IMG/VR virus record: IMGVR_UViG_3300029258_002338
Location: 6,175-70,174 of that record
Direction: 5' to 3' (one strand)
Origin: a virus
DNA length: 64,000 bases
Below are positions 5,436 to 51,117 of this stretch, in pieces. The notes under the pieces were generated by a model. The model did not search any database and had not been told where the DNA came from. It saw only the letters and a list, made by a program, of their open reading frames with translations. Position 1 is the first letter of the stretch, and each line of letters opens with the position of its first letter. Made by a program: the position numbers and the translations under genes.

Positions 5436-6329
5436 CTACTTGACCTCCAGCTCGCCGAAGAGGCAGAGGTGAACCGCCTGCCGCTGGCTGGTGATGTTCT
5501 GGAGCGTGAAGCCCATGCGCTGCCTCGGGTAGAGGTAGGTGTTGGCCGGGAAGACGCGCACGCGGGGCCCCTCGTCCTTGTCGTCGTACAGGCGCACCAT
5601 CGGCGCCAGGCACCCCACCGGGATCGGCGTGGGGTTGGGCATCCACTGAGTCCCGAAGGTCGGGTTCACGCGGTAGCCGATGTGGACCATGCCGCGCCCG
5701 TAGGGGTCGTTGTCCTCGTCCCGCCAGTTGGGCGTCTTGAAGAGGAGGCGCGTGATCCAGATGGACTCGCGGCCCCGGTTGAACAGGTCCGCCGAGTCCA
5801 TGTTGGCCTGCTGCTCGGGCTCGAGCCCCGATCCGATCCTCCCGGCCAGGATCGCGGGCTGGCCGTCGCGCTTGAAGCACTTGGCCAGGAACGTGATCTC
5901 GGGGAGGGTCGTCTCGTCTGGGGGCGCCAGCAGGTTGGCGACCGTGACGCGCAGGCCCTGGTCGCGAGGCAGCTCGTAGGGCACGGGGAACCGGATGTCG
6001 GTCGCCAGGTCGTTGGCGCCCAGGTGCTGCCGGGTGTGGAGCGTCGTAGAGCAGTAGCCGTTGAGGGCCGTCTGGACCAGGTTCTCATCCGAACAGCCGC
6101 TCTTGCCGACCTCGACGACGGTGCGCCGGCTGATGCCCCCGTCCACCGTGTTGAACGGAGGCTCGGCGACCACCACCTGCCCGGCGACGGCCAGCGAGAC
6201 GAGCCGCCAGCGGTACATCGACGTGTTCGCGAAGGTCGATGGAGCGACCTTGACGGTCTCCCCCGCGGGGATGCCGATCTCCTCGTGTAGCCACCGCGGC
6301 GTCTCGTAGCCGCGTTCGATCTGAGCCAT
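5436..6329 (-). CDS. capsid-family protein, two-domain paralog 1
   Basis: Motifs RFPVPYELPRDQGL and VFPANTYLYPRQRM...LCLFG; GAGGAGG RBS. Confidence 0.55.
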   Translation of the reverse strand: MAQIERGYETPRWLHEEIGIPAGETVKVAPSTFANTSMYRWRLVSLAVAGQVVVAEPPFNTVDGGISRRTVVEVGKSGCSDENLVQTALNGYCSTTLHTRQHLGANDLATDIRFPVPYELPRDQGLRVTVANLLAPPDETTLPEITFLAKCFKRDGQPAILAGRIGSGLEPEQQANMDSADLFNRGRESIWITRLLFKTPNWRDEDNDPYGRGMVHIGYRVNPTFGTQWMPNPTPIPVGCLAPMVRLYDDKDEGPRVRVFPANTYLYPRQRMGFTLQNITSQRQAVHLCLFGELEVK

Positions 6330-11469: not shown

Positions 11470-11498
11470 AGCTTACCGAGCTATCAGGGGCTTGTCAA
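11470..11498 (-). promoter_or_regulatory. sigma70-type promoter for the structural operon
   Basis: TTGACA (11498-11493), 17 nt, TAAGCT (11475-11470). Confidence 0.7.
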
Positions 11499-34482: not shown

Positions 34483-35076
34483 ATGCGTTGGATCACCAGC
34501 CCTTCACGGGTTGGCGAGTGGGCGTACCTGTGTTTGCTCGCCTTCGTCAGTCAGAGCGTCCTGGTGGCGGCCGAGCCCGCCGAGCCCGTCTCGATCGGGG
34601 AGCCCCGCGAAGGGGTCTCCGAGGTGGCCGAGGTCGAGACCTACATCAAGACCTTCGTCGCCAACGGTCGCAAGGAGCAACGAGCGGCCCGAGACCGCCG
34701 CTGGAAGGCCATCCCCGAGCTGGCGGCCCTCATCGTCGAGGTGGCCCGAGAGTGGAGCCTAGACCCCCTCCTGGTGGCCGTGGTCGTCAAGTACGAGTCG
34801 AGCTTCTACCAGGCCAGCGTGGGGGCCGTGGGCGAGCTGGGCCTGATGCAGGTCTGGGGCAAGGCCGCCCGCGACGACGACGGCAAGCCCTACGACCTGG
34901 ACACCTCGCGCGGGCAGCTCATGGCCGGCTGTCACCACTTCGTGCGCTGCCTCGAGCAGTGCGGCGGCGACGTCCTCTCTGCTCTGAAGGCGTACCAGTC
35001 CGGCCAGTGCGGCGCCTCTCGCACTGGGGCGGGGCTACGGTACAGGGAATATCTAGCAGTCCGAAGCAAACGGTAG
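34483..35076 (+). CDS. lytic transglycosylase (SLT) with N-terminal signal/anchor
   Basis: LDPLLVAVVVKYESSF, GELGLMQV, ALKAYQSG. Confidence 0.85.
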   Translation: MRWITSPSRVGEWAYLCLLAFVSQSVLVAAEPAEPVSIGEPREGVSEVAEVETYIKTFVANGRKEQRAARDRRWKAIPELAALIVEVAREWSLDPLLVAVVVKYESSFYQASVGAVGELGLMQVWGKAARDDDGKPYDLDTSRGQLMAGCHHFVRCLEQCGGDVLSALKAYQSGQCGASRTGAGLRYREYLAVRSKR

Positions 35077-35460
35077 GGTATTAGCTTACCTGTCAGGAAT
35101 TATCCCACATATTTACCATGTGCCGCTATGGCAACCTAGCAAATACCATGCCACATATCCATAGGATACCCCTATAGTATAAGGTATATATAGCAATAAG
35201 TATGCCAAGTCTATATGGGTATACTATGCAAAAAGTATATAGATTCCCTATGGATTCGGACGGAAATGTCGTGGTTTTTCCTATCCTGTCGGGTATCCAT
35301 AAACCTACGATTTCCCAATTCCCCAGTGATTTCAATAGGTTATAGCATATAGGGAATCTTGGCCTATTCCCTGCATATTCCCTATATGTTCGCGGTTCTT
35401 TCACAATCGATTCCCTGTGCCAGCTGGCGATTCCTAGCGTATCCCTGGCTATGAGCACGC
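35077..35460. other. AT-rich non-coding segment with recurring ATAT/TATAG/CATAT motifs
   Basis: Sharp GC drop; no credible ORF; sits between lysis-type genes and a probable early region. Confidence 0.6.
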
Positions 35461-35482
35461 ACTGCGTTCTTTGACTGCGAAA

Positions 35483-35600
35483 ACCGCTTGTAGGTTTGCC
35501 GACGAAATCCGACAGGGTTTGCGGGTTTATGCGCTTGTTTCGTTTCCTTTCTCAGCGCGGGTTGCTCGCACGTCGCCCGGTTCGATTCCGGGAAGCGGTG
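35483..35600 (+). ncRNA. tRNA-like structured RNA with an anti-SD loop (not a canonical tRNA)
   Basis: Acceptor-like stem ACCGCTT/AAGCGGT stacked on T-arm CCCGG-TTCGATT-CCGGG; further stems CGACG/CGTCG, AAATCC/GGGTTT, GCGGGT/GCTCGC, TGCGCT/AGCGCG; loop TGTTTCGTTTCCTTTCTC. Confidence 0.75.
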
Positions 35601-35633
35601 TCGTGTTCTTTGAAACCCGAAAGGAGAAAAGGA

Positions 35634-36005
35634 ATGGAACAGCAGATCTTCTCGAATGACTTCTTCCTGCCGGAGATGCCCGGAATCGACGGCGACCGAT
35701 TCGAGTTGTGTCCGTGTACAATGGTCCACGGTCACCTCTTGGACGTCGAGGCCGGAGTCGAGTTTCTGGTCTTCCGGTCGGGAACCGTCGAGGGGAAGCA
35801 CGCCGCTTTGGTGCTGGCGCTTCCCTTGGCCGAGGGGCTTTCCTTGCCGGATCCCAAGCTGATGATCATCGATCTCGACATCGCCCGCGACAAGGGATCC
35901 GTATTTCAGGATCTCACCTTCACTTCGCAGTCGTTGGCTGACTGGGCCAGCGAGAACGACGAGTGGGATTTCGTCGCTCCCTGCGACTGCGCCGACTGCC
36001 TCTAG
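35634..36005 (+). CDS. hypothetical acidic protein
   Basis: ATG 35634 after AAAGGAG; C-terminal CDCADC. Confidence 0.6.
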   Translation: MEQQIFSNDFFLPEMPGIDGDRFELCPCTMVHGHLLDVEAGVEFLVFRSGTVEGKHAALVLALPLAEGLSLPDPKLMIIDLDIARDKGSVFQDLTFTSQSLADWASENDEWDFVAPCDCADCL

Positions 36006-36180
36006 CCTACCTTTCTTGATTCCCCGATGCGAGGCGGCGAGTCCTGCTCGCCGTCTCGGATCTCGGAACCAAACTCCGAGAGTTTCTCCGGGTCTTTGAC
36101 AATCTGGATTCGGATGCACTTGCAACGCGCGCGGCGCGTTGTCGCGCGCATTCAAAACCCGAAAGGGAAGGGAGTCCAAA

Positions 36181-36411
36181 ATGATCAAGGTCACTTTCAT
36201 CAACAACATGGGCGGTGGTTACGGCATGACGAAGGACGTGCCGGACGGCACCACGATCGACAGCTTCCTGCGCGAGACCCTCGGCGAGGGTTTCGATCCG
36301 CACAGCTACAAGATCTCGGTGAACAGGAGTCCGGTCGCCGCCAGCTACACGCTGGTCGACGGCGACCGGATCTCCGCCACCCCGACCAAGATCGAGGGGG
36401 CCGGCCGCTAG
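36181..36411 (+). CDS. ubiquitin-like (ThiS/MoaD beta-grasp) protein
   Basis: 76 aa; VPDGTTIDSFL...ISVN...LVDGDRISATP...EGAGR. Confidence 0.85.
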   Translation: MIKVTFINNMGGGYGMTKDVPDGTTIDSFLRETLGEGFDPHSYKISVNRSPVAASYTLVDGDRISATPTKIEGAGR

Positions 36412-36423
36412 GCTGGAACCCTC

Positions 36424-37551
36424 ATGACCGATCCCGAACTCAATCGGGAAGCTCTGCGGCTGGCCGTGCGGTTCCTTCGGGAGCCGCCGGCCCGGCCCCG
36501 GGCTTCTCAGCTCCAACTTGCAAGCTGCATCCGTGACGCGGTCTCGCGACTCGAGACTGCGTACAAGCACATTCGTCGGCACTCACGGGTCTCGGACCCG
36601 TACAAGCAGGACCGCTACAGACGGTCCATCCAGAGGATCGTCTGCTCGAACGCCCACTGCTTTCGGCAGTGGGATGACGAGCAGACCATCGAGGACGAGC
36701 TTCGTCAGCTCCACCCGCTCCAGCCGAATCTCCGGGACGTCTACGATGACATCCTGGCGATTCAGGACGAGTGGGGGGCAGCTCTGGATCTGAGGCAGAA
36801 GACGATCGTGGTCGTGACCGACCCGATCGTCCTAGAAGGGATCAACCTGGGTCGGATGAGCATCAAGCTCTACATCCGCCCCGGAGATCTCAGCTTTCGG
36901 ATCCATCCCTTGGAGCCCAACTACGGGCGCAACGACTATTTCCACCCGCACGTCAGTGCGGGAGGGGATATGTGCGAGGGAGACGCTGAGACCAAGATCA
37001 ACAACGCCATCATCAACGGTTCGATCTACGACGTCGTTCAGATCCTGATGTCCACGCTCACCACCTACAATTCGTCTTCGCCATACCTGGCGCTGGAAGA
37101 CTGGGATGGTCACTCGGAGACTTGCCCCAACTGTGGGGATGAGATCTCCGAGGACGACGCCTACAGCTGTGATAGCTGCACTGAGACCCACTGTGGGATC
37201 TGCGTGCACTACTGCGAGGAGTGCGGAGGGTACTATTGCGAGGGATGCAGAACCGTCTACTCGTGTGAGCAGTGCCATTCGTCCATCTGTTCCCGCTGTT
37301 CCTACACCTGTTCCGTCTGTGGCGAGCAGTTCTGCGACGTGTGCCTCAATTCCTGCGAGGATTGCGGTTCGCTCTTCTGCGAGGAGTGCAACCGCGATCC
37401 CGATGGGCGCTGCTGCCCGGAGTGCTACGAGCGCGAGGAGGAAGAAGATGACGAAGAAGAAGAAGAAGCCGAAGTCGGGGACAAAGTCAAAGTCGGAGAC
37501 AACGACTACGACGGCGACCACGATCACACCGGCTACGCCCGAGCCGTCTAA
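36424..37551 (+). CDS. prokaryotic E2-like protein with Cys-rich repeats and acidic tail
   Basis: YFHPHVSAGGDMCEG (HPxV...C E2 active-site pattern), then a long CxxC array. Confidence 0.75.
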   Translation: MTDPELNREALRLAVRFLREPPARPRASQLQLASCIRDAVSRLETAYKHIRRHSRVSDPYKQDRYRRSIQRIVCSNAHCFRQWDDEQTIEDELRQLHPLQPNLRDVYDDILAIQDEWGAALDLRQKTIVVVTDPIVLEGINLGRMSIKLYIRPGDLSFRIHPLEPNYGRNDYFHPHVSAGGDMCEGDAETKINNAIINGSIYDVVQILMSTLTTYNSSSPYLALEDWDGHSETCPNCGDEISEDDAYSCDSCTETHCGICVHYCEECGGYYCEGCRTVYSCEQCHSSICSRCSYTCSVCGEQFCDVCLNSCEDCGSLFCEECNRDPDGRCCPECYEREEEEDDEEEEEAEVGDKVKVGDNDYDGDHDHTGYARAV

Positions 37552-38371
37552 GGCGGCTCTCACACCGATTCCGAAACCGCCTCGCGCAACCCTCTGTCTC
37601 ACGCAGGAGGCGGCGGCCAAGGCTGCTTTCCTCCGGGACAACTACCAGCACGAAATCGGCGCCTTCGGCGTCGCGCTCAACGCCGACGATCCGCTGCTGA
37701 TCCACGACTTCGTAGTGGTGAAGCAGGAAGTCAGCTGTGCATCGGTGGAGTTCGACGATCAAGCAGTGAGCGACCTTTTCAACGACTGCTTCGACGAGGG
37801 GATCCATCCGTACCAGTGCGGACGGGTCTGGATGCACACGCATCCGTCCGGGGTGACGTCTCCGTCCGGGACCGACGAGCAGACCTTCGAGAAGGTCTTC
37901 GGTTCCTGCGACTGGGCCGTCATGTTGATCTTCCCCAAGGGGGCGGCCAAGCCCTACTGCTGTCTCCAGTTCAACGGCGTCGTCTCCCACCGGGTCGAAA
38001 TCCCGGTGGAGATTCTGCCCTACGAGGCAGACACCGCCGAGTGGGAAGCCGAGGTGGCGGCCAACGTCACCGAGGAAGTCTTCATCTACAGCGGCACGGC
38101 CAAGGCGGCATCCGACGCCGGAGTGCGGGATTCCGATCTCGCAATCTACGATCTGTTCGAGCCCTACGACTCCGAGCCTCGCGAGTCCGACCCGTTCTAT
38201 TTCGACGCGCAAGGGCGCCGGGTCTGGTGTGGTGGAAACGAGGACGAACTCACCGAGTTCGCCCACGACGAAGGCTACATCATCCACGAGCACGCCGACG
38301 GGACCCAGGAGCTTCTCGACGAGGATGAGATCTGCTGGTACCCCGACGACGAGGGGACGGGCTATGCATAG
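37448..38371 (+). CDS. JAB/MPN metallo-isopeptidase
   Basis: EIG...WMHTHPSGVTSPSGTD (E...HxHx7Sx2D-type); start ATG 37448 after GAGGAGG. Confidence 0.85.
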   Translation: MTKKKKKPKSGTKSKSETTTTTATTITPATPEPSKAALTPIPKPPRATLCLTQEAAAKAAFLRDNYQHEIGAFGVALNADDPLLIHDFVVVKQEVSCASVEFDDQAVSDLFNDCFDEGIHPYQCGRVWMHTHPSGVTSPSGTDEQTFEKVFGSCDWAVMLIFPKGAAKPYCCLQFNGVVSHRVEIPVEILPYEADTAEWEAEVAANVTEEVFIYSGTAKAASDAGVRDSDLAIYDLFEPYDSEPRESDPFYFDAQGRRVWCGGNEDELTEFAHDEGYIIHEHADGTQELLDEDEICWYPDDEGTGYA

Positions 38372-38999
38372 ACGCGACGCCGACATCATCAATCAGGATC
38401 GTCTCTCGCAGCTCGACTTCATGGTAGTCGGTGTCGGAGCGGTAGGCCGGAACGTCGCTCTGATGCTGGCCTACATCGGCGCCGCCAGGATCACTCTCGT
38501 GGACTTCGACACCGTCGAGCCCGAGAACCTGGCGACTCAAGGGTTCGTCCCGGCACAGCTGGGCGAGCCCAAGGTCAACGCCGTCTGCGAGGACATCAAG
38601 CGGATCGATCCCGAGATCGACGTCACGGTTCATTTCTCACGCTGGAAGCGCAGCATGGCCGCCGAGGTGGTCTTCTGCTGCGTGGACTGCATCAAGGCCA
38701 GGAAGTTCATCTTCAACGCGGTGAAAAACGACTGCCGTCTGTTCCTGGACGGCCGCATGACCGCTGAGACCTTCCAGGCCCACGCCGTCTACGACGACGA
38801 CACCACCGTCGACTATCGTGAGACCTTCTTCGCCCCGGGCGAGGCGCAGGGAGAAGCCTGCACCGCGAAGGCCACGATATACAACTCCAACATCGCCGCC
38901 GGCTTCCTCACGGCGGCCTTCACCAAGTGGCTTCGGGGCATCGACCCGGAGCCGTGCGTCAACGTCAACGTGCTCACCGCCGAGGTGGTGGTGGGCTGA
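38364..38999 (+). CDS. ThiF/E1-like activating enzyme
   Basis: VVGVGAVG, DFDTVEPENL, KV, CCVD...R, DGR, and candidate catalytic Cys in EACT. Confidence 0.9.
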   Translation: MHRRDADIINQDRLSQLDFMVVGVGAVGRNVALMLAYIGAARITLVDFDTVEPENLATQGFVPAQLGEPKVNAVCEDIKRIDPEIDVTVHFSRWKRSMAAEVVFCCVDCIKARKFIFNAVKNDCRLFLDGRMTAETFQAHAVYDDDTTVDYRETFFAPGEAQGEACTAKATIYNSNIAAGFLTAAFTKWLRGIDPEPCVNVNVLTAEVVVG

Positions 39000-39052
39000 T
39001 CCGCATCCGAATCCAGATCTGAACGAGCCCCGGCGATTCGAGACCGGAAAGA

Positions 39053-39087
39053 GGCGGGGGAGTGCAACCGCTCCCCCGTCCATTTCT
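39053..39087 (+). terminator. hairpin after the E1 gene, possible terminator
   Basis: GGCGGGGGAG/CTCCCCCGTC stem followed by CATTTCT. Confidence 0.45.
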
Positions 39088-39298
39088 GCTCTCGAACCTA
39101 GCTCTCTGAAAAAGGATGATCGAGAATTGGATGGTGTATGGTGTATGGTAGGTGGTTTCTCCGTCCTTTTTCGGGGCTCTCCAGGAAGCGCAGGATCGCG
39201 TGTGCGCGCGATTGCGCGGCCAATCTCCCTTCCGGTCTCAAAGAGGATTCGCAAGCGTTCTTGCGCTTCCTCGAGATCCCTGATCTCGATTTGTCCAC

Positions 39299-39327
39299 TT
39301 GCGCCCTTGGCCTATAGACACTACATT
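39299..39327 (+). promoter_or_regulatory. sigma70-type promoter for the DUF932 gene
   Basis: TTGCGC-17-TACATT. Confidence 0.55.
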
Positions 39328-39394
39328 GGGGTAGTGCAGTTGGCCTGGGGATGCGAATCCTCTTTGAAAACGAGTTGCAAGAAGGGAGAAACCA

Positions 39395-40585
39395 ATGCAG
39401 ATCTACAAGGCTTTCGATCAGTGGTGCAAGCGCCCGATCGACGAGCGTTTCTGGACGCTCGACGAGATGGTGCGCGCGACTCACTCCTGCTACGTCAACG
39501 CGGCCCAGGGCCAGGCGAGCTACGGCGATCTCTCCGTCATGGCCGAGGGGGACTCGATGTTCCTCGCGGGCAAGTCGGGCGTCAAGGCTCGCCTCTCGAA
39601 CTGGGCGTTCGGCCAGCTCTGCTCGCGGGCCGGCGCGCCGGCGTCGTACCTCCGTCAGCTCCCGGCCCCGATGGCCCAGGACTGCCTGAACCACGGGCTC
39701 CGGGAGCAGGTGGAAGACGGCAACGCGCGGATCCTGTTCCACGGATCCCAGCCGTCTTCGACCGCTGCGGATCTGGCTCGCGATCCCAACCTGCTCGCCC
39801 GAGCTTTCACGTCCATGACCTACAAGCGGGTCTGGAACTGGGAGATCGGCAAGCGCCTGATCCAGCTCCGCGACGACGGGGGCTGGGTCACCCCTCCGGC
39901 CCGTCCCGCCCACCCCAACGACCCCCGGACCCGGAAGGCCACCGAGGCCGACTGTGGTCCGCACACGCTCGTCCAGCCCGGCGATCTGATCGCGCCGTCC
40001 GGCATCTACGCCAGCGACCACGATACGTTCGTTTTCATGGTCAACCCGGAGCGGACGGTCAGCGACGGCAAGAACGAGCTGTCCCGCGGCTTCTTCTGCT
40101 GGAACTCCGAGGTCGGCGCTGCCAGCTTCGGGGTCATGGCGTTCCTCTACAACCACACCTGCTCGAACCACATCGTGTGGGGAGCGCAGGGGGTCCACGA
40201 GATCCGCGTCCGCCACGTCGGCAACGCGGACGAGCGGGCCTTCAACGAGCTGTCCGTCGAGCTGCGCAAGTACGCCGACGAGTCCACTTCGGACATGGAC
40301 GCCAAGATCGCCAGCGCGAAGAAGTACGTCATCCCCGGCAACGACAAGTCGTCCGTCGTGGACGCGATCTTCGGGATCGCGCGCCAGAAGCGCGTGCAGA
40401 TCCCGCAGAAGGCGTTCCGGGCGGCCTACGACATCGCCGACCAGCGGGAGGACGACTACGGTCACCCCAACACGCTCTGGGCCCTGACCCAGGGTCTCAC
40501 CCAGCTCTCCCAGCAGTCCGAGTTCGCCGACAAGCGGGTCGACCTCGACCGGCAGGCGGGCAAGCTGCTGGAGATCGCGTTCTAG
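39395..40585 (+). CDS. DUF932-family protein
   Basis: AFGQLC...P..Y; RGFFCWNSEVG...YNHTCSNHIV...RHVG; NTLW...GLT. Confidence 0.75.
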   Translation: MQIYKAFDQWCKRPIDERFWTLDEMVRATHSCYVNAAQGQASYGDLSVMAEGDSMFLAGKSGVKARLSNWAFGQLCSRAGAPASYLRQLPAPMAQDCLNHGLREQVEDGNARILFHGSQPSSTAADLARDPNLLARAFTSMTYKRVWNWEIGKRLIQLRDDGGWVTPPARPAHPNDPRTRKATEADCGPHTLVQPGDLIAPSGIYASDHDTFVFMVNPERTVSDGKNELSRGFFCWNSEVGAASFGVMAFLYNHTCSNHIVWGAQGVHEIRVRHVGNADERAFNELSVELRKYADESTSDMDAKIASAKKYVIPGNDKSSVVDAIFGIARQKRVQIPQKAFRAAYDIADQREDDYGHPNTLWALTQGLTQLSQQSEFADKRVDLDRQAGKLLEIAF

Positions 40586-40610
40586 GGATCTGACAGATCG
40601 GAGGGGTGAG

Positions 40611-42307
40611 ATGACCGAGATCAAGCGGAACGACGAAGGCATCCCCGTCTGCCCCGACTGCGGGGCGGCGTGGTGGGGGGAACACTACAGGGCGGAGGTC
40701 CACCACAACATCGACATCAGGCGCTCCTGCGACAAGGTGACGCTGGAGTGGGGGCTCTACGAGGCTCGCCTGGACGGCAGCGAGGTGGGTCAAACAATCT
40801 ACTGTCGCGGGTGCGGCGAGGACGCGCCGGAGGAGGTGGCGGAGGCCGTCTACGCCATGATCGACTGAAGGCCGAGAGGCCTCGGCTCCTGGGGAGATCA
40901 CGCTCAAACCAGGGGCCCCGCAGGGCAATCGCGCCCTGCCGATTGCGAAGGGAGGTTTCGAGATGCAACTCTTTGACAACCGAGGAGAGGAGGAGAGATC
41001 ATGAGCGTGGTGGTAGGCCTGTTCGACTACGAGCGGGACGGGAAGGTGCTGCTGAAGATGGTCGAGGCCGAGCTGGGAGAAGACGGCAAGCGGATTTCCT
41101 GGCGGAAGTTGCAGCCCAAGTTCAACAAGGCGTTCGGTCTCGACCTGACGCGGGGCCAGTGGTCTCGCGTCGTGCACCAGTGTCGCGTCGATCACGGTGT
41201 TCCGCTACGCGAGTCGGGCTACGGGTTCATCGCGACGCGAGGCCGGGAGCTGTACGAGCTGACCAAGGACGTCGAGGACCTCGCCGTCACCCTCCGCGGA
41301 GGGTTGGCCGAGGAGCTGGACGAGTTCTTCGAGGCTCCGCGGTCCTGGGCCTCGTGGAGGACGATGATCATCCGCTGCCGTCAACGGTACGGGAACGGAT
41401 CCGACGCAGCTCCGCCGGAGCCCGAGCCCCCGCCCGCCAGGCCCAAGAAGCCCGAGAAGTCCAAGGGCAAGCCCAAGGGCAAGCGGTTCCACCTGAAGCG
41501 CAGCCCGGAGCGCGTGGCGCGCGGCATGGCCGCCAGCGTCGATGCGACGAGCGAGGCGATCGAGAACGCCAAGGCGTCGCTGCCCAAGGGGGACGAGGGC
41601 GTGCCCGGCTACGCCGGCCTGTCTCCAGCCCCCGCCCCAGCCCCCACTCCCGCTCCGCCCCGGCGCCTGGCCAAGAACTGCTTCGAGGTCACCTTGGAGC
41701 AAGAGGACGTGGATCGTCTGCACGCCTTCATGAAGGGCGTGCGGCGCAACCTGGAGCGCCTCGGTCTCGAGGCGGACTTCACCAGCGAGAAGGCCCTGCG
41801 CGTGCTCGTCAAGCGTGGGCTGGACGAGGAGGAGCAGTGATGATGTCCAACGGTATGCCGACCATGAAGGAACTCTTCGACGGGATCGTCATCGACCCCG
41901 AGGAGATCGCCAACCGGCACCTGCGCTACGCCCCCGAGCTGAAGGGTCACGTCCTGCACGTCCAGGCCCTGGAGTCGGTCCAGCCGATCGCGGACATGGG
42001 CGACGAGGACGAGGACGACGACCTGCCCGACGTGGACTGGGAGGCCATGTTCTCGGAGGAAGACGGCTGGGAGCCGGCCGAGAAGCCCGAGCCCTGCGAC
42101 GAGGTGTGCTCTCAGTGCGAACGCTACGAGTGCACCGGGCAGCAGGAGCCCGAGCCCACCGAGGGGATCGACATCCGCGTGGTGGTCAAGGTCGCCCCCA
42201 AGGGGCAGCGAGCCTCGCGGAGCGCGCCCGTCTGGAAGACGATCACGTTCCGATCTCCCCCTCTCGCTCGGTACATCAACGACGTCTGCGACTTCCACGA
42301 TATGTGA
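40611..42307 (+). CDS. three hypothetical genes (40611-40868 Zn-ribbon, 41001-41840, 41840-42307)
   Basis: RBS and coupled junctions; CPDC...CRGC in the first. Confidence 0.6.
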
Positions 42308-47300: not shown

Positions 47301-50024
47301 CCCGTGCGGCTTGCCGTTCTGGCGCCTCCGCACGAGGGGGCCGCCGTCTCGGGAGAGCCGCTCGATCAGCGGGACGTAGGACCCCCACCCCATGAAGGCG
47401 TCGGGGTAGCGCGGCTGGAAGTAGTTGCGGAAGAACCCGGCGTGCGTGAACTCGACCCCCGGGGGCACCTCGGCCAGCGTGTCGAGGATCATGTGCCACA
47501 CCTCGTCAGCCGGCAGGCGGTTGATCGTACCTTGTGGCCCTCTCATCTCACCGCTTCCTCTCTCCCTGGTACGGTGCCGTCTCGACGCAGATCCTCAAGG
47601 GCTCGTGAGCAGGCCCGTACAGGTAGCCTGGGGGAAGCTCCACGTCGAAGACCTCGCAGTACCACCGCTTCGCCCCATCGCGGCGCGCTTCGTCGGTCTT
47701 CCGCAGCTGCGGGCAACCCGTACAGTGATCGTGGTTCGGTATCTCGAAGTCGTAGTCGATCCCATCGACCTTCGCCTTGAATCGTCTCATCAGTTTTCCC
47801 CCTCCTTCTCCACGGTCAGCCTGGCGTGCTCCCACGCTTGGCCGCCTCTGGTGTGTTGTTGGGATCGCTGTAGGCGCAGTCAGCGCACCACGTAGCCCGC
47901 TTGGCCCCAGTGAATCCGCGCCCGCATTTGAGGCATCTACAGAGGTAGCCGCCAGGTGCCCAGCCTTTTCGCTGCGGGCGCTCGTCTCCTGGATCGTTCA
48001 TCGCCTGTTGGACGGTCAGCGCTGTTTCCTTTTTTCCCATCATCGGTCGTCCTCTTTCTTCCGCCGCGCATCCCACGTCTCCTGGTAGGGGTGCTGCAAC
48101 TCGAACTCCCCGGGGCCGAGGATGCGGCGATCCCGCGGAGACAAGACCCCGTACTCAGGAATTCGGCCGTCCTCCGCGTTGATCGGGTGCTCGCCAATGC
48201 TGCGGAACCAGTCGAGCGCGAGATCGAAGCAGTCCACCTTCTCAGTCGAGAAGAAGATGCGGCCAACGATCTGCGTCTCGTCGGCCGGGAACTTCTCGTA
48301 GCCCCAGCCAGGGCACGGGACGAAGTAGCGGTCGCCCATCCCCCTGATCTTGGACTCCAGCCGCTCCCTCTGCTTCTCGGGGTCCAAGGGGCGTGGGCCG
48401 ATCCAGCGGCGCGTCACCTTGTGCGTGACGATGCGACCCTCGCAGAGCACGGCGATGGCTTCGGCGTAGTGCTCGTGCTCGGGCAGCTGCTCCGTGGTGA
48501 AGGGACCCTCGAAGTGCCTGTTGTCGGTCATCGGTCGTCCTCCCCTTTCTCCGCCCTCAGTGGGCGTTGATAACCTTCACTTATCAAGGGCCTCCTCCTC
48601 CTCCGAGGTCCACAGCTCCTTGATGACGCGGCGGATGGACGCGAACCGGGCGCCCACCAGCACCTCGAAGGTCTCGAGATCGTGGTAGCGGATCTTCCTG
48701 GTCGCCAGCTCGAGGATCTTCTCCAGCGCCTTCTCGCGCCGGTTGACCAGACGCTCGAGCCTCTTGCAGGTCTCACACTCCATCACTTCCCTCCGTGGAG
48801 CCAGACGTTGCCGTAGCCGGGGAGGATGACGGTGCCGTGGCGGCTCATCTCCTCGGCGATGCCCTCCTACTGAGCTTGACGACGTTCGGTGAAGATGTAG
48901 GCTACAGTGAAGCGTTTCATCGTTCCTCCAAGATGTTGCACATGGTCTTGCTGTAGGTGTGCGGGAGGCACACCAGGAGGCTGCGCCACCCCGCGTTCCA
49001 GGCGCGGTACAGGCGCCGGTATCTGCGGTGCGATTCCGCGTCGATGTCGCAGAGCCGACGGACCGTGCCGTAGCCCTGTCCCATGAGGCGAGCCACCTCC
49101 AGGTCGATCATCCGCGCGGTCTCGTAGTCGTGGCGGGCGTCCCACCAGCGCGCCGTGAGCCGCCGCGTGGCGCCGTCGATAGAGGCGACGAGTAGCTTGG
49201 CGTCCTCGATCTCCTGGAGCCGCGCGCACGCGTCCCAGACAATCAGCTCTACCTCGGCGAATGATCGTAGAGCCTGCACCGCCAGCGCGCGCACCTCGGC
49301 GTCGAACGCCTCGAGATCTTCGATGGGATCGATCACTTGTCGTTCTCCTCCGCTGCTCATCTGTCGCTCTCCTTCCGCGGCACGAAGATCAGTCTCCTGC
49401 GGCGTGACCCAGTCCATGTCCGAGCTGCTCGTCATCACCTCGACGTTCTGGTTCATCCGTTCCCGTCCTCGTCGTCGTAGGGGTTGTCGGGCACGTCCTC
49501 GCGGATCGCCTCGCGCTCGAGCTTGTTGACCTCGCGGATCAGCTCGTCGCGCGCCTCCTTCAGCGCCACGTTCTCCTCTTCGAGGTCGCGCTTCTCGAGC
49601 GTGAGGGCGTCGATCTTCTGGTTGAGGGTCGTGATCGCCCTCAAGCCCTCCTCGCGGTGCTTGATGGCCTCGCGCAGCTCGCGCTGCAACGCGGCGACCT
49701 CTCCCTGAAGCTGGTGGATCCGCTGGTCGCGCGCCACGTCCATCGCCTTGCCCGCCAGGCCACCCAAGAATCCCATCCATCCCGCTCCGCTCATCCGTTC
49801 CTCCCGGCCTTCTCGGCCTCGCGGCACCCCTCGCACCGCTGGTAGTGGTACCCCTCCCGTCGCATGATGAGGCCGAGCCGCGAGTCGTAGCTCCGACACC
49901 ACATCATGAGGGGGTCGCCCGTCTTGACGTACCGCTGGGGGCAGTCGAGCCCGCACCGCGTCTCCCCCTCGACCCAGACCTGGCAGTCGAACCCGACCCG
50001 GTCCTTGAGGATCATCTTCTTCAT
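44310..50024 (-). CDS. array of small accessory genes (44310-44450, 44443-44703, 44705-45730, 45727-46215, 46217-46393, 46396-46614, 46619-46942, 46942-47190, 47250-47546, 47548-47790, 47816-48043, 48040-48531, 48577-48786, 48917-49456, 49453-49794, 49791-50024)
   Basis: Co-oriented, mostly abutting ORFs with RBS; several coiled-coil (RVAELE repeats) or CxxC proteins. Confidence 0.55.
49391..49456 (-). pseudogene. N-terminal remnant of a phage Dam-like adenine methyltransferase
   Basis: MNQNVEVMTSSSDMDWVTPQ resembles the typical N-terminus (V-x-x-SS-x-x-x-x-W-x-TP); no catalytic motifs follow. Confidence 0.4.
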
Positions 50025-50899
50025 TCCTCCCGCTCCTTCTTCAACCGGCGTAGGGCGTCGCCCACGCGTCGGGTGCGGCTGCCCCGGAGGTACCGCTCGG
50101 TGGTGGCCACGCTGGAGTGGCCGAGGAAGTCCTTGACGTCGAGGATGTCGCCCTCGGCGTCGTAGAGGCGGCGGGCCATCGTGTGGCGGAAGCGGTGGGT
50201 CCAGACCTCGTCCGCGTCCAGCCCGGCCTCGTCGGCCACCCGCTTGACCCAGCGCCTCACCTGCTCGTAGGCCGCCGCGGCACGTCGCGCCTTGGCCGAC
50301 CGGGGGGAGATCAGGTCCGCCACCTCGTCCCAGTCCCCCAGCTCCAGCAAGGCCGCCAGCTCCTCGTCCACGATGCCCTCGACGGCCAGGTCGCGCTCCC
50401 GGTCCCGCTTGGTCCAGATGCGCAGCACGCCGGTCTCCTGCGCCTCCTCGACGGCCTCGCGCTGGACGTGGGCCAGGTCGGCCCCGGCGCGCAGCCCGAG
50501 CTGGGTCATCAGCCGCAGGCAGGGCCAGAGCCAGACCGGCTCCTCGTCCCGGTAGGCGTCGAGCGCCTCGTCGAAGGCCTCGGCTTGCTCCTCGGTCAGC
50601 GGCGTGACGATCTTGCTGCGCAGGCTGCCCTTGCCCCCGCGCATCATCTTCACCGCGGCCCGGGAGGAGAGCGCCTCCTCCAGCGTCCCGTCGTCTCGCC
50701 AGCGGGCCCAGCGCAGCAGGGCGGCCCGGTAGAGCCGCTTGGTCGCCGGGCGGATCTTGCGGCGAGCCAGCACCCGCCAGGGCTCCTCCTCGTCGTACTC
50801 CAACGCGGCCTTGACCGCGTTGAAGTAGTTCTGCACGGAGCGGGGCTCGAGCCCCTCCACCTCCAGGTACGCCCGGAAGGCCTCCAGGGTGTCGCTCAT
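50021..50899 (-). CDS. tyrosine recombinase/integrase (XerC/D-like)
   Basis: Complete R-K-H-R-H-Y set: GLR, TKR, THRFRHT, LGHSS, TERY; N-terminal SAM-like region. Confidence 0.9.
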   Translation of the reverse strand: MSDTLEAFRAYLEVEGLEPRSVQNYFNAVKAALEYDEEEPWRVLARRKIRPATKRLYRAALLRWARWRDDGTLEEALSSRAAVKMMRGGKGSLRSKIVTPLTEEQAEAFDEALDAYRDEEPVWLWPCLRLMTQLGLRAGADLAHVQREAVEEAQETGVLRIWTKRDRERDLAVEGIVDEELAALLELGDWDEVADLISPRSAKARRAAAAYEQVRRWVKRVADEAGLDADEVWTHRFRHTMARRLYDAEGDILDVKDFLGHSSVATTERYLRGSRTRRVGDALRRLKKEREE

Positions 50900-51117
50900 T
50901 CCGGCCACCACCCGCAGTGCTCGGCGAGCAGCTCGTTGAGCCTGAACACCTTGCCCGCCGTCCATCCGATGCCGTAGCCGTCGCGGTCCACGAACCCACG
51001 GGCGCGGATCATCGCGCTGACTTCACCCACGCGGAAGGCGGTGTCGGCGATCTCGGCGTAGGGCTCGGGGAGCACCGTCTTCAGCAAACCCATCTCTCCC
51101 TTGGGGTCCTGTCCCAT
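50896..51117 (-). CDS. hypothetical protein
   Basis: Follows the GAGGAGG junction repeat. Confidence 0.5.
   Translation of the reverse strand: MGQDPKGEMGLLKTVLPEPYAEIADTAFRVGEVSAMIRARGFVDRDGYGIGWTAGKVFRLNELLAEHCGWWPE

Follow-up and report, generated by a model that had tools for sequence, protein, structure and literature searches.

A 16-nt inverted repeat and a boxA-like element around a phage Ubl-E2-JAB-E1 operon: a possible counterpart of the rrn leader-trailer helix

Why should four protein genes of a phage be bordered by two short noncoding arms that are exactly complementary to each other across almost 3 kb? The locus lies in IMG/VR virus record IMGVR_UViG_3300029258_002338, which is complete with a length of 70,174 bp. 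The window, the whole stretch of DNA that was analysed, covers positions 6,175 to 70,174 of this record (64,000 nucleotides), and its numbering is used below. The operon genes, repeat arms, hairpins and boxA-like sites are all given on the + strand. The initial annotation had compared the arms to the processing stalk of rRNA operons. In these operons, an antitermination complex consisting of NusA/B/E/G, SuhB and S4 acts with the leader boxA, and RNase III processes the leader-trailer helix.

The operon and its setting

The operon is 2.8 kb long and has the gene order Ubl-E2-JAB-E1, which is the same in the homologous loci long enough to contain all four genes. The Ubl gene (36181-36411) encodes a 76-aa β-grasp protein, the model of which (pLDDT 86.5) matches the folds of archaeal ubiquitin, SUMO2 and MoaD. 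At least 38 homologues of Ubl were found, 30 of which were aligned with the phage protein, and a ...KIEGA stretch is conserved near the C-terminus. The product of the E2-like gene (36424-37551, 375 aa) has an HPHV...C core and an acidic tail, and its C-terminal part is rich in Cys. His174, Pro175, His176, Cys184 and 21 further Cys residues are invariant in an alignment of 35 sequences, and the model matches UBC E2 enzymes weakly (E 0.02-0.16). The JAB/MPN peptidase gene (37448-38371) matches Pfam Prok-JAB at an E value of 2e-4, which is under the curated cut-off, and the JAB models of PADLOC; tblastn matches are found in 40+ loci. The start of this gene is uncertain. Translation may begin at an in-frame ATG at 37448, where the gene would overlap the tail of E2, or later, and homology sets in at approximately 37575. 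The last gene (38364-38999) encodes a 211-aa E1, an adenylating enzyme of the ThiF family (Pfam ThiF, 1.2e-25) with PDB matches to E1s, MoeB and BubCD. No family match was found for E2 and Ubl in Pfam, PADLOC or PHROGs, and the only matches of PADLOC 2.0 on the operon were generic ones to JAB and CBASS E1-E2. A widespread, poorly annotated Ubl-E2-JAB-E1 family exists, with 56 metagenome loci and at least one complete phage genome.

The gene order equals the Ubl-E2-DUB(JAB)-E1 order of the BilABCD operons (Type I/II), as given in the accessible part of a preprint (bioRxiv 10.1101/2023.09.26.559546). The phage Ubl is also similar in having a conserved Gly near the C-terminus with few residues after it. 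Contrarily, the phage E1 is a minimal ThiF domain, the long Cys-rich part and the acidic tail of E2 are distinctive, and the carrier of the operon is a phage. The operon has the order and domains of the BilABCD type, with a weak match for E2 and a sub-cut-off match for JAB.

The operon region is contained in a run of + strand genes (17253-41840). A promoter scan found no sigma-70-like promoter in 34800-39600, so the operon is probably read within a longer + strand transcript. The G+C content of the operon block is lower than that of its surroundings. Contigs from three runs of three studies (X1-X3) are identical and colinear, and a search for relatives of the phage with sequence variation gave no close one. 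The sequence was found in no RNA run. A 708-aa phage protein matched none of 201 genomes of the class Phycisphaerae (0/201). The comparison with rrn operons below therefore rests on a candidate host group, the Phycisphaerae. The two Phycisphaerae MAGs with the closest operon relatives, taken as candidate-host genomes, both have NusB and RNase III genes.

Complementarity between the operon flanks

The left (leader) arm, ATCTGGATTCGGATGC, is located at 36102-36117, and the right (trailer) arm at 39003-39018 is its exact reverse complement; the two are 2,885 nt apart. The stop codon of E1 (TGA, 38997-38999) ends 3 nt before the right arm begins. The initial annotation had reported this perfect 16-bp inverted repeat around the operon, and all of its coordinates and sequences proved right. 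The 16-mer occurs in the 70,174-bp genome only as these two copies, even when up to two mismatches are allowed. The 16-bp helix includes neither a G-U pair nor a mismatch. Both arms are outside coding sequence, and no similarity is found past the 16 nt on either side of either arm.

The length of the repeat should be judged together with its position. With no limit on distance, the window contains five inverted pairs that are perfect over 16 nt, and thus this length by itself is not rare in the window; a match of this length between the two operon flanks is rare. When the flanks (36006-36180 and 39000-39394) were shuffled 20,000 times with dinucleotides preserved, the longest perfect flank-flank run never reached 16 nt, and runs of 15 and 14 nt appeared once and six times, respectively. 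Among noncoding-noncoding long-range repeats within 8 kb, the next longest after the 16-nt pair are 12 and 11 nt. Weighted or energy-based scores of flank pairing do not set the window apart from shuffles (z -0.94), and by a second score, the value of the window (47) is equalled by the highest of 25 shuffles (47). Comparable imperfect duplexes arise by chance in GC-rich flanks.

These observations bear on the possibility that the repeat is neutral, that is, a chance match or a recombination leftover from the arrival of the operon, and that the boxA-like sites described later have roles apart from it, in antitermination or the control of translation. The unexceptional energy-based scores and the five 16-nt pairs in the window are in line with such an origin, as rare coincidences are to be expected when very many windows are scanned. 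The perfect identity of the arms, with no G-U pairs, is in keeping with a young DNA duplication, and a recent DNA event explains it as well as selection on RNA does. Moreover, the operon is a portable module. Two Phycisphaerae MAG loci (L005 and L006) share only the four genes with the phage and have unrelated flanks; the homology between these two loci stops inside the 3' end of E1. The lower G+C content of the block points the same way. However, the absence of a 16-nt run in the shuffles argues against chance, and the similarity that ends at exactly 16 nt on both sides does not look like a simple inverted duplication. The noncoding arms are also placed as in rrn operons, one adjoining a boxA-like element and the other following the last stop codon and preceding a terminator-like hairpin. 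We therefore consider a neutral origin unlikely, while giving it appreciable weight.

The distribution among homologues should also be noted. Conservation of the complementarity in homologous operons, the lack of which the initial annotation had named as evidence against a stalk, is found in none of the 20 complete homologous operons, though these are only 27-45% identical and stand in unrelated contexts. The longest perfect flank-flank runs in them (7-10 nt) do not rise above the shuffle level (null means 7.4-8.2), and only one of the 20 has a boxA-like site upstream. This absence is a further point for a neutral relic. The helix would be an addition specific to the lineage of this phage and not a property of the operon family.

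In predicted co-folds of the two flanks, the 16-bp helix is retained, and folding the flanks together gains -19 to -25 kcal/mol compared with folding each alone; the duplex by itself has -27.9 kcal/mol. The co-fold extends the helix by 2 bp past a one-base bulge, then by 3 bp and 5 bp. The nested outer pairings of the initial annotation are retained in part. The sequences exist, and the short helix between CCGGG (36088-36092) and CCCGG (39029-39033) survives co-folding. The outermost 10-bp pairing between GTCTCGGATC (36053-36062) and GATTCGAGAC (39035-39044), with one G-U pair, is absent from the co-fold, because both of its arms lie in far stronger local hairpins. One is a GC-rich hairpin with a 13-bp stem after the upstream gene (36030-36058), which occupies the left arm and is kept in the co-fold, and the other is a long hairpin (39037-39096) with a terminator-like core (39053-39080), which occupies the right arm. 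The segment 36006-36185 folds with -83 kcal/mol (z -5.2), and the left 16-nt arm is predicted to form a local hairpin with 36087-36095 as an alternative. Another GC-rich hairpin is predicted in the 5' untranslated region (36127-36149), and a purine-rich ribosome-binding site (approximately 36166-36175) is located on its 3' side.

A second helix (39233-39372) is formed by arms at 39233-39253 and 39352-39372, which are complementary perfectly over 16 nt and at 90% over 21 nt. Its 3' arm contains a boxA-like site at 39359, upstream of a DUF932 gene. A 10-nt core, [TA]GGATTCG[GC]A, is found in five copies (35251, 36105, 39015, 39244 and 39361), all noncoding and around the operon. Such a recurring core could be read at the level of DNA, with the arms being recombinase sites that make the operon invertible or excisable, or sites for a DNA-binding protein that bridges the operon ends. 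The inverted orientation and exact identity of the arms suit recombination sites, and invertons of the Gin/Hin/Cin or tyrosine-recombinase type likewise have short inverted repeats around a segment of a few kilobases in phage genomes. The phage encodes a tyrosine recombinase (integrase, 50024-50965). However, this nearest recombinase is 11 kb off the operon, none is adjacent as in the invertons, and no serine invertase was found among 92 ORFs scanned against Pfam. Only a single orientation is seen in the contigs of the three runs, in which no strand-switch joint was found at the arms. The colinear contigs are weak evidence against inversion, because contigs drop rare forms, and a rare inverted form could escape them. 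In addition, the two 16-nt repeat pairs (that of the operon flanks and that within 39233-39372) are each perfectly complementary and share a core of only 7 nt, as base pairing, rather than recognition by one protein, would predict. A function of the arms in DNA is accordingly rather improbable, and the DNA inversion site that the initial annotation had offered as an alternative is supported neither by the contigs nor by the genes nearby. Its other alternative, a mobile-cassette end, fares similarly. The bases flanking the arms are not repeated as a target-site duplication and no third copy of the 16-mer exists, which make a transposon or MITE end unlikely; no transposase domain above its cut-off was detected in the 92 ORFs with Pfam.

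boxA-like sites and likeness to rrn loci

The element adjoining the left arm, GGTCTTTGACAA (36091-36102), agrees with the rrn-leader motif of Phycisphaerae, G[CT]TCTTTGACAAG, at 11 of 12 positions, the motif being that of a candidate host group. The exception is position 2, which is G in the phage and C or T in the rrn sites. Its boxA-like part, GTCTTTGACAA (36092-36102), shares one base with the 16-nt arm. The site is on the sense strand, 90 nt upstream of the ATG of Ubl, and untranslated; it is presumably transcribed. The stretch TCTTTGACAA occurs twice in the window (0.03 copies expected), the second copy being at 40970-40979. These matches support the boxA-like element that the initial annotation had placed against the left arm, and the site is a putative rrn-type boxA, a candidate element for NusB/NusE binding. 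The E. coli consensus is given as GYTCTTTAANA in the accessible text of PMC5725501. Among 31 Phycisphaerae rrn leaders, 20 contain the loose pattern [CT]T[CT]TTT[GA]A.A, in 18 of which it takes the form G[CT]TCTTTGA[CA]A.

The region contains more of these sites. BoxA-like sites are found upstream of the operon at 35395, 35466 and 35605, the last of which is a perfect match to GYTCTTTGANA and is located 19 nt before a ribosome-binding site and the ATG at 35634. Downstream, GCTCTCTGAAA (39101-39111, one mismatch) directly follows the hairpin 39037-39096 and is predicted to be locally base-paired, and ACTCTTTGACAA (40968-40979), 22 nt upstream of the ATG at 41001, is identical to a natural spacer boxA of locus L067. 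In the 5.6-kb block 35395-40978, seven sense-strand boxA-like sites are observed against 0.17-0.19 expected, with a maximum of two in any of 150 block shuffles. When each of the 10 boxA-like sites in the genome was tested, a run of at least 16 nt within 8 kb was seen for 36091 alone; three of 1,500 random probes gave such a run. No partner arm was found for the site at 40968 or the other boxA-like sites.

The element includes TTGACA (36096-36101), which could instead be the -35 box of a promoter belonging to the operon; the operon would then resemble a moron, which brings a promoter and a terminator with it. In that case, the left arm would be untranscribed promoter spacer, which makes an RNA stalk impossible. 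The order of hairpin 36030-36058, TTGACA, operon and terminator-like hairpin 39053-39080 is moron-like, promoters of the TTGACA-N17-TAnnnT type are used elsewhere in the phage, and no other sigma-70-like promoter is available in 34800-39600. However, the hexamers located 16-18 nt downstream (ACTTGC, CTTGCA and TTGCAA) lack A2 and T6 and match TATAAT at only one or two of six positions, and the site is missing from the list of the promoter scan. Nine other TTGACA sites in the genome have -10 boxes of the TAnnnT type, and none of the nine has the TCT prefix. The conserved stretch is TCTTTGACAA, which is common to 40970-40979 and the rrn boxA and not to these nine promoter-like sites. A promoter at this position is thus very unlikely.

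We compared the layout with 18 Phycisphaerae rrn loci for which both flanks are available, a comparison framed after the data were seen. Their longest perfect runs between leader and trailer measure 8-18 nt, and 11-18 nt in 13 of the 18. In nine of the 13 boxA-bearing loci, the run begins 6-15 nt downstream of boxA position 2; the 16-nt run of the phage begins 10 nt after the same position. The analogy to an rrn stalk drawn in the initial annotation therefore stands, as the 16S leader-trailer helix of Phycisphaerae likewise begins right after boxA and is of similar size. The boxA of the rrn loci and the boxA-like element of the phage both directly precede the leader strand, and the complementary trailer comes kilobases later, just past the RNA that is, or in the phage would be, looped out. 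A boxA-like site after the trailer is also shared, a spacer boxA being present in six of the 18 rrn loci.

The differences should be noted as well. The enclosed RNA is a translated four-gene mRNA and not rRNA, and no RNA family of Rfam was detected in 34800-41200; the phage helix would thus work like an rrn helix while lying outside that family. Since the trailer arm starts 3 nt past a stop codon, terminating ribosomes would overlap the arm, unlike in rrn operons. The phage helix is short and perfect and has no counterpart in homologous operons; the helices of rrn loci covary across genomes. According to the accessible text of PMC10250234, the E. coli 16S helix requires >17 bp; the phage helix has 16 bp.

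Possible looping of the operon mRNA

The elements are arranged in the order of boxA-like site (36091), 5' arm, operon, 3' arm, terminator-like hairpin and boxA-like site (39101). This rrn-like layout suggests that the phage may loop out and process its mRNA likewise. We estimate at about 0.5 the probability that an rrn-like boxA and a leader-trailer helix act in RNA at this locus, where they would loop out the mRNA of the operon so that RNase III can process it or its ends are protected. NusB/NusE and other Nus factors would bind boxA on the nascent RNA and remain with RNA polymerase, which would become resistant to termination while the 5' arm is kept near the RNA exit. The 3' arm would emerge 2.9 kb later and pair with the 5' arm, the predicted pairing consisting of the 16 bp and the co-fold extension, to loop out the operon mRNA. 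RNase III may then cut the helix, or the helix may shield both ends of the mRNA; either event would separate the operon message from the transcript on both sides of it. If the helix is cut, boxA would moreover be released from the polymerase just ahead of the terminator hairpin. The initial annotation had suggested that the looped-out mRNA may be excised, stabilised or circularised.

Parts of this scheme resemble known phage systems. Lambdoid phages use the host boxA signal on their own transcripts, and in lambda sib, an RNase III structure past the 3' end of a gene controls the mRNA of that gene. The boxA-like site at 36091 is of the full rrn type and not the short form of lambda nut, and the phage pairing spans 2.9 kb, whereas sib is a local hairpin. 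No N-like protein or boxB was identified in the phage (92 ORFs scanned against Pfam); the N/nut system is outlined in the accessible text of PMC10250234. Elements of the boxA type are also found upstream of protein genes, suhB and others, and were searched for within 50 nt of the start codon (Baniulyte et al. 2017, PMC5725501); the phage sites at 35605, 39359 and 40968 lie within this distance. In the accessible text of that paper, the elements act on single genes, by repression of translation or by promoting termination by Rho, and no long-range partner helix is described for them.

More tentatively, the phage may have copied a host rrn design onto a protein-coding operon, in which Nus factors recruited by boxA would serve as an RNA chaperone and the leader-trailer helix would allow excision by RNase III from a long early transcript. 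To our knowledge, a role of the rrn antitermination complex as a chaperone of RNA pairing over long distances is described for ribosomal RNA only. A wider use of co-transcriptional RNA looping is put as an open question in the accessible part of a 2026 preprint. The seven boxA-like sites in one transcription block suggest that host Nus factors are heavily used by phages other than the lambdoid ones, too. If the proposed looping is true, the helix would be the first known leader-trailer helix around an mRNA and would show RNA looping by Nus factors occurring naturally outside rRNA, and the phage operon, with boxA and helix in one layout, would be a compact natural test case.

The enclosed operon and its genome

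A perfect 16-nt inverted repeat, with a left arm at 36102–36117 and a right arm at 39003–39018, encloses four genes. They encode a ubiquitin-like protein (Ubl; 36181–36411, 76 aa), an E2-like protein (36424–37551, 375 aa), a JAB peptidase (ending at 38371, start uncertain), and a ThiF-type E1 (38364–38999). The model of Ubl (pLDDT 86.5) matches archaeal ubiquitin, SUMO2, and MoaD. Nearly all top matches of the E2 model (pLDDT 74.7) are UBC E2 enzymes, with weak E-values of 0.02–0.16, and HPH...C and 21 further Cys residues are invariant in the E2 alignment. The 22 invariant Cys residues include the presumed catalytic C184. The protein also has CxxC pairs arrayed along an extended C-terminal stretch, followed by a poly-Glu/Asp tail, and its RING-like PDB sequence matches are only faint (E-values of at least 0.076). 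The JAB frame overlaps the E2 tail (37448–37551) and reads there as a Lys/Thr-rich stretch, so that the two genes may overlap by approximately 100 nt. In the Ubl family (38 distinct homologues, loci L005–L062), an almost invariant TP(T/L)KIEGA is followed by 0–6 variable residues. The sequences suggest that the Ubl C-terminus is trimmed by the JAB peptidase before activation.

The gene order, Ubl-E2-DUB(JAB)-E1, is the same as that of the BilABCD operon, Ubl-E2-DUB-E1, as outlined in bioRxiv 10.1101/2023.09.26.559546. The operon family is widespread, being found at 56 metagenome loci with a relative of the E2 core (31–45% identity) and in two contigs of Phycisphaerae MAGs (L005 and L006), and the gene order is constant in every homologous contig that is long enough. 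L005 and L006 have the four genes in common with the phage and nothing else, the flanks being unrelated. The two MAG contigs (L005, 6452–10327; L006, 6444–10327) share 85% identity over a region that begins 1.2 kb upstream of Ubl and ends approximately 70 nt before the E1 stop codon, and they are unrelated beyond that point, which indicates a recombination boundary at the operon's 3' end. Both have a 57-bp direct repeat near 6150 and 6450.

The virus record is 70,174 bp long, has direct terminal repeats and is rated complete; the window (G+C content, 65.6%) corresponds to its bases 6175–70174. Most of the 92 ORFs in the Pfam scan have no family. Those assigned include a set for replication and recombination (a family A DNA polymerase bearing a UDG domain, SNF2 helicase, DUF3987, PD-(D/E)XK nuclease, and HNH), SLT transglycosylase, DUF932, and glycosyltransferases. 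A run of plus-strand genes spans approximately 17253 to 41840. Within it, a 420-bp spacer (35077–35495) has a G+C content of 47% in a 66% genome and is rich in short repeats (ATTCCCT, TATAG, and similar ones); it may serve as an origin, contain a group of binding sites, or consist of unusual promoters. In an attempt at host assignment, no tRNA gene was found in the phage genome, and a 708-aa phage protein had no match in 201 Phycisphaerae genomes. Single-protein scans of viral contigs with E2, E1, and the DNA polymerase gave no close phage relatives. An E2 alignment scan of viral and genome contigs, in which the search pattern was the E2 acidic tail, and tblastn of E2 against a phage collection gave no match. 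L004, a candidate relative from the P0002 scan of viral contigs, was discarded, as its sole match is a 24-residue Cys-rich piece.

boxA-like sites and the rrn layout

The initial annotation compared the repeat, together with a CCGGG/CCCGG pairing and an outermost 10-bp helix, to an rRNA processing stalk. The observation is real, and all the coordinates and pairings are present in the sequence. The 16-mer has two copies in the genome, which are the arms. The window has five perfect 16-nt inverted pairs at any distance, and thus length alone is not rare. In 20,000 dinucleotide-preserving shuffles of the two flanks, however, a run of 16 nt appeared in none, 15 nt in one, and 14 nt in six. The sole other 16-nt repeat between noncoding regions within 8 kb is a local hairpin (39238–39253/39352–39367), and the next longest long-range ones within 8 kb measure 12 and 11 nt. 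The two intergenic regions have other short matches in common, but these are not colinear, so that duplication of the entire 5' UTR in inverted orientation was ruled out.

The left arm overlaps a boxA-like site (36091–36102) by one base. In the rrn leaders of both MAGs that have the closest operon relatives, a TTGACA-N17-TAnnnT promoter is followed by GCTCTTTGACAA, which lies approximately 317 nt ahead of 16S. We searched 41 genomes of the class Phycisphaerae and obtained 31 rrn leaders for which 300 nt or more of sequence upstream was available. Of the 31, 20 match the loose pattern [CT]T[CT]TTT[GA]A.A, and 18 of these 20 have G[CT]TCTTTGA[CA]A, mostly as G[CT]TCTTTGACAAG, in agreement with the boxA consensus GYTCTTTAANA as cited in PMC5725501. 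The phage site, GGTCTTTGACAA, departs from the motif of this class, a candidate host group, at position 2 only, and its assignment as a candidate boxA is supported.

The TTGACA in this site should be noted, since it could also be a −35 box with the left arm as the promoter spacer. This is very improbable, because A2 and T6 are missing from the hexamers downstream, and because the TCT prefix is absent from all nine other TTGACA sites, which do have proper −10 boxes; the −35 reading is weaker than the boxA reading. TTGACA-N17/18-TAnnnT promoter-like sites are at 11498, 11595, 15187, 17216, 17311, 28602, 52638, 52858, and 57573, and several of the nine have in common a GGCCTGGAG-like motif 10–20 nt past the −10 box.

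The window contains two occurrences of TCTTTGACAA (36093 and 40970; expected, 0.03), both on the plus strand upstream of genes. Ten sites in the genome are within one mismatch of GYTCTTTGANA, and the seven on the plus strand are all located in 35395–40978, where block shuffles give approximately 0.17–0.19 expected sites (maximum of 2 in 150 shuffles). Three sites (35605, 39359, and 40968) precede an RBS and ATG by 19–25 nt (genes at 35634, 39395, and 41001), placed as described for suhB-type boxA regulation. The sites at 39101 and 39359 are predicted to be locally base-paired, and not all of the seven clustered sites need be active. Immediately past the site at 39101 are the motif AAGGA and an ORF of 11 codons (39115–39150 including the stop codon) overlapping a tandem GGTGTATGGTGTATGG repeat; the ORF may be a leader peptide or meaningless. 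A minus-strand gene in 39100–39394 was ruled out, only spurious ORFs being present. The boxA-like sites of the homologous loci, being for the most part a coding motif conserved in the JAB gene, are uninformative.

We compared this layout with 18 rrn loci of the same class (candidate host group) that have both 16S flanks. The longest perfect leader–trailer run is 8–18 nt, with at least 11 nt in 13 of the 18 loci. In 9 of the 13 boxA-bearing loci, the run starts 6–15 nt after boxA position 2, abutting or overlapping boxA. The arms vary between genomes yet remain complementary, as expected for a real 16S leader–trailer helix. The phage arm is alike, starting 10 nt after boxA position 2 and being 16 nt long. 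When all 10 boxA-like sites were examined for a complement within 8 kb downstream, a 16-nt one was found only at 36091, against 3 of 1,500 random probes; the runs at the other sites are 8–12 nt, within the null, and a search for a partner arm of the site at 40968 gave none. Past the trailer arm and hairpin lies a further boxA-like site, that at 39101, in parallel with the spacer boxA after 16S in rrn operons. Such a spacer boxA is present in 6 of the 18 loci, and that of the rrn locus L067 is the same as the phage's ACTCTTTGACAA. The order of boxA and leader strand holds in Escherichia coli rrn as well, beyond the candidate host class: boxC, which belongs to both the leader strand and the RNase III site, is located 18–19 nt after boxA, and the helix must exceed 17 bp, as described in PMC10250234. 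The rrn analogy is better founded than could be recognized at its proposal.

Pairing, homologous operons, and DNA-level function

The stalk is partly retained in the co-fold. The 16 bp and CCGGG/CCCGG form, the helix continuing with 2 bp past a one-base bulge, 3 bp, and then CCGGG/CCCGG (gain, −19 to −25 kcal/mol), whereas the outermost 10-bp helix (36053–36062/39035–39044) is replaced by local hairpins at 36030–36058 and 39037–39096. The latter hairpin contains a terminator-like core (39053–39080). The flanks are strongly structured when folded singly (z, −5.2 and −3.8), and weighted and energy scores of their pairing are no better than those of shuffles. RNAduplex gives spurious full-length duplexes on long flanks, and the Smith-Waterman-type score is dominated by imperfect GC-rich matches. 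Since these two scores fail to separate the window from shuffles, they are uninformative on homologues, and the statistical case consists in the perfect run and its placement, not in free energy. Rfam gave two chance-level matches only. The spacer 39097–39400 as a whole has a fold z of −5.0. The second repeat (39238–39253/39352–39367; 21 nt at 90%), located within 39233–39372, has arms 98 nt apart, and its 3' arm holds the boxA-like site at 39359, just before the DUF932 gene.

Conservation in homologues, suggested in the initial annotation as a check, is not observed. In none of the 20 complete operons flanked by 100 nt or more on either side (L038 was dropped for its short flank) is the flank–flank perfect run above chance (7–10 nt versus null means of 7.4–8.2), and an upstream boxA-like site is present in L046 only. 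Judging from these distant operons in other contexts, the stalk is not a family feature. This does not imply that it is functionless here. We regard it as rather unlikely that the repeat is a neutral relic. Contigs from the sequencing runs X1, X2, and X3 (three studies) have 0 differences from the window over 3.6 kb (35800–39400) and thus provide no covariation signal; X5 has short pieces only, and no RNA run is listed among those that contain the sequence. Two of the three sources are sediment (2018) and one is seawater (2021); they are possible sources of the record and maybe not independent.

The repeat could instead be a DNA-level site, such as an inversion site or the end of a mobile cassette. 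This is a doubtful reading, since no invertase is encoded nearby and the only candidate, a tyrosine integrase found in the Pfam scan (50024–50965), is 11 kb off. The contigs of X1–X3 have no strand-switch (inverted) joint at the arms; their one joint (37846 to 38497, in one X3 contig, side 24) has nothing to do with the arms. Neither a target-site duplication nor an extra copy of the 16-mer in the genome accompanies the repeat. A 10-nt core, [TA]GGATTCG[GC]A, occurs five times, always in noncoding regions around the operon (35251, 36105, 39015 on the minus strand, 39244, and 39361 on the minus strand). The copy at 35251 is solitary, and each of the other four is the core of an arm in the two 16-nt repeat pairs. 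Each pair is perfect while the two have a 7-nt core alone in common, suggesting that base pairing is favored over the binding site of a single protein.

A possible leader–trailer helix around the operon

Judging from the sequence features, we give a probability of approximately 0.5 to an RNA-level helix that would enclose the operon as leader and trailer do in rrn. The parts of the proposed stalk and their order are seen directly. In the boxA, leader–trailer, and phage literature searched, no such helix around a protein-coding operon is described, though supplementary tables (Bil, boxA) could list phage-borne operons or boxA targets.

No sigma-70-like promoter was found in 34800–39600, and the operon is thus probably read from upstream. 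Nus factors with SuhB are described as tethering the RNA to the elongating polymerase, which makes it loop (PMC4807359). Genes for NusB and RNase III are present in both MAGs with the closest operon relatives. In the proposed mechanism, Nus factors would load at boxA, and the tethered 5' arm would pair with the 3' arm on its emergence. The helix would then be cut by RNase III, or would shield the two ends. Cleavage would release boxA immediately ahead of the terminator-like hairpin, and the complex could be reloaded at the next boxA-like site. The position of the 3' arm should also be noted. The arm begins 3 nt past the E1 stop codon, so that it would be partly covered by a ribosome terminating on E1, suggesting that pairing of the arms may depend on translation of E1.
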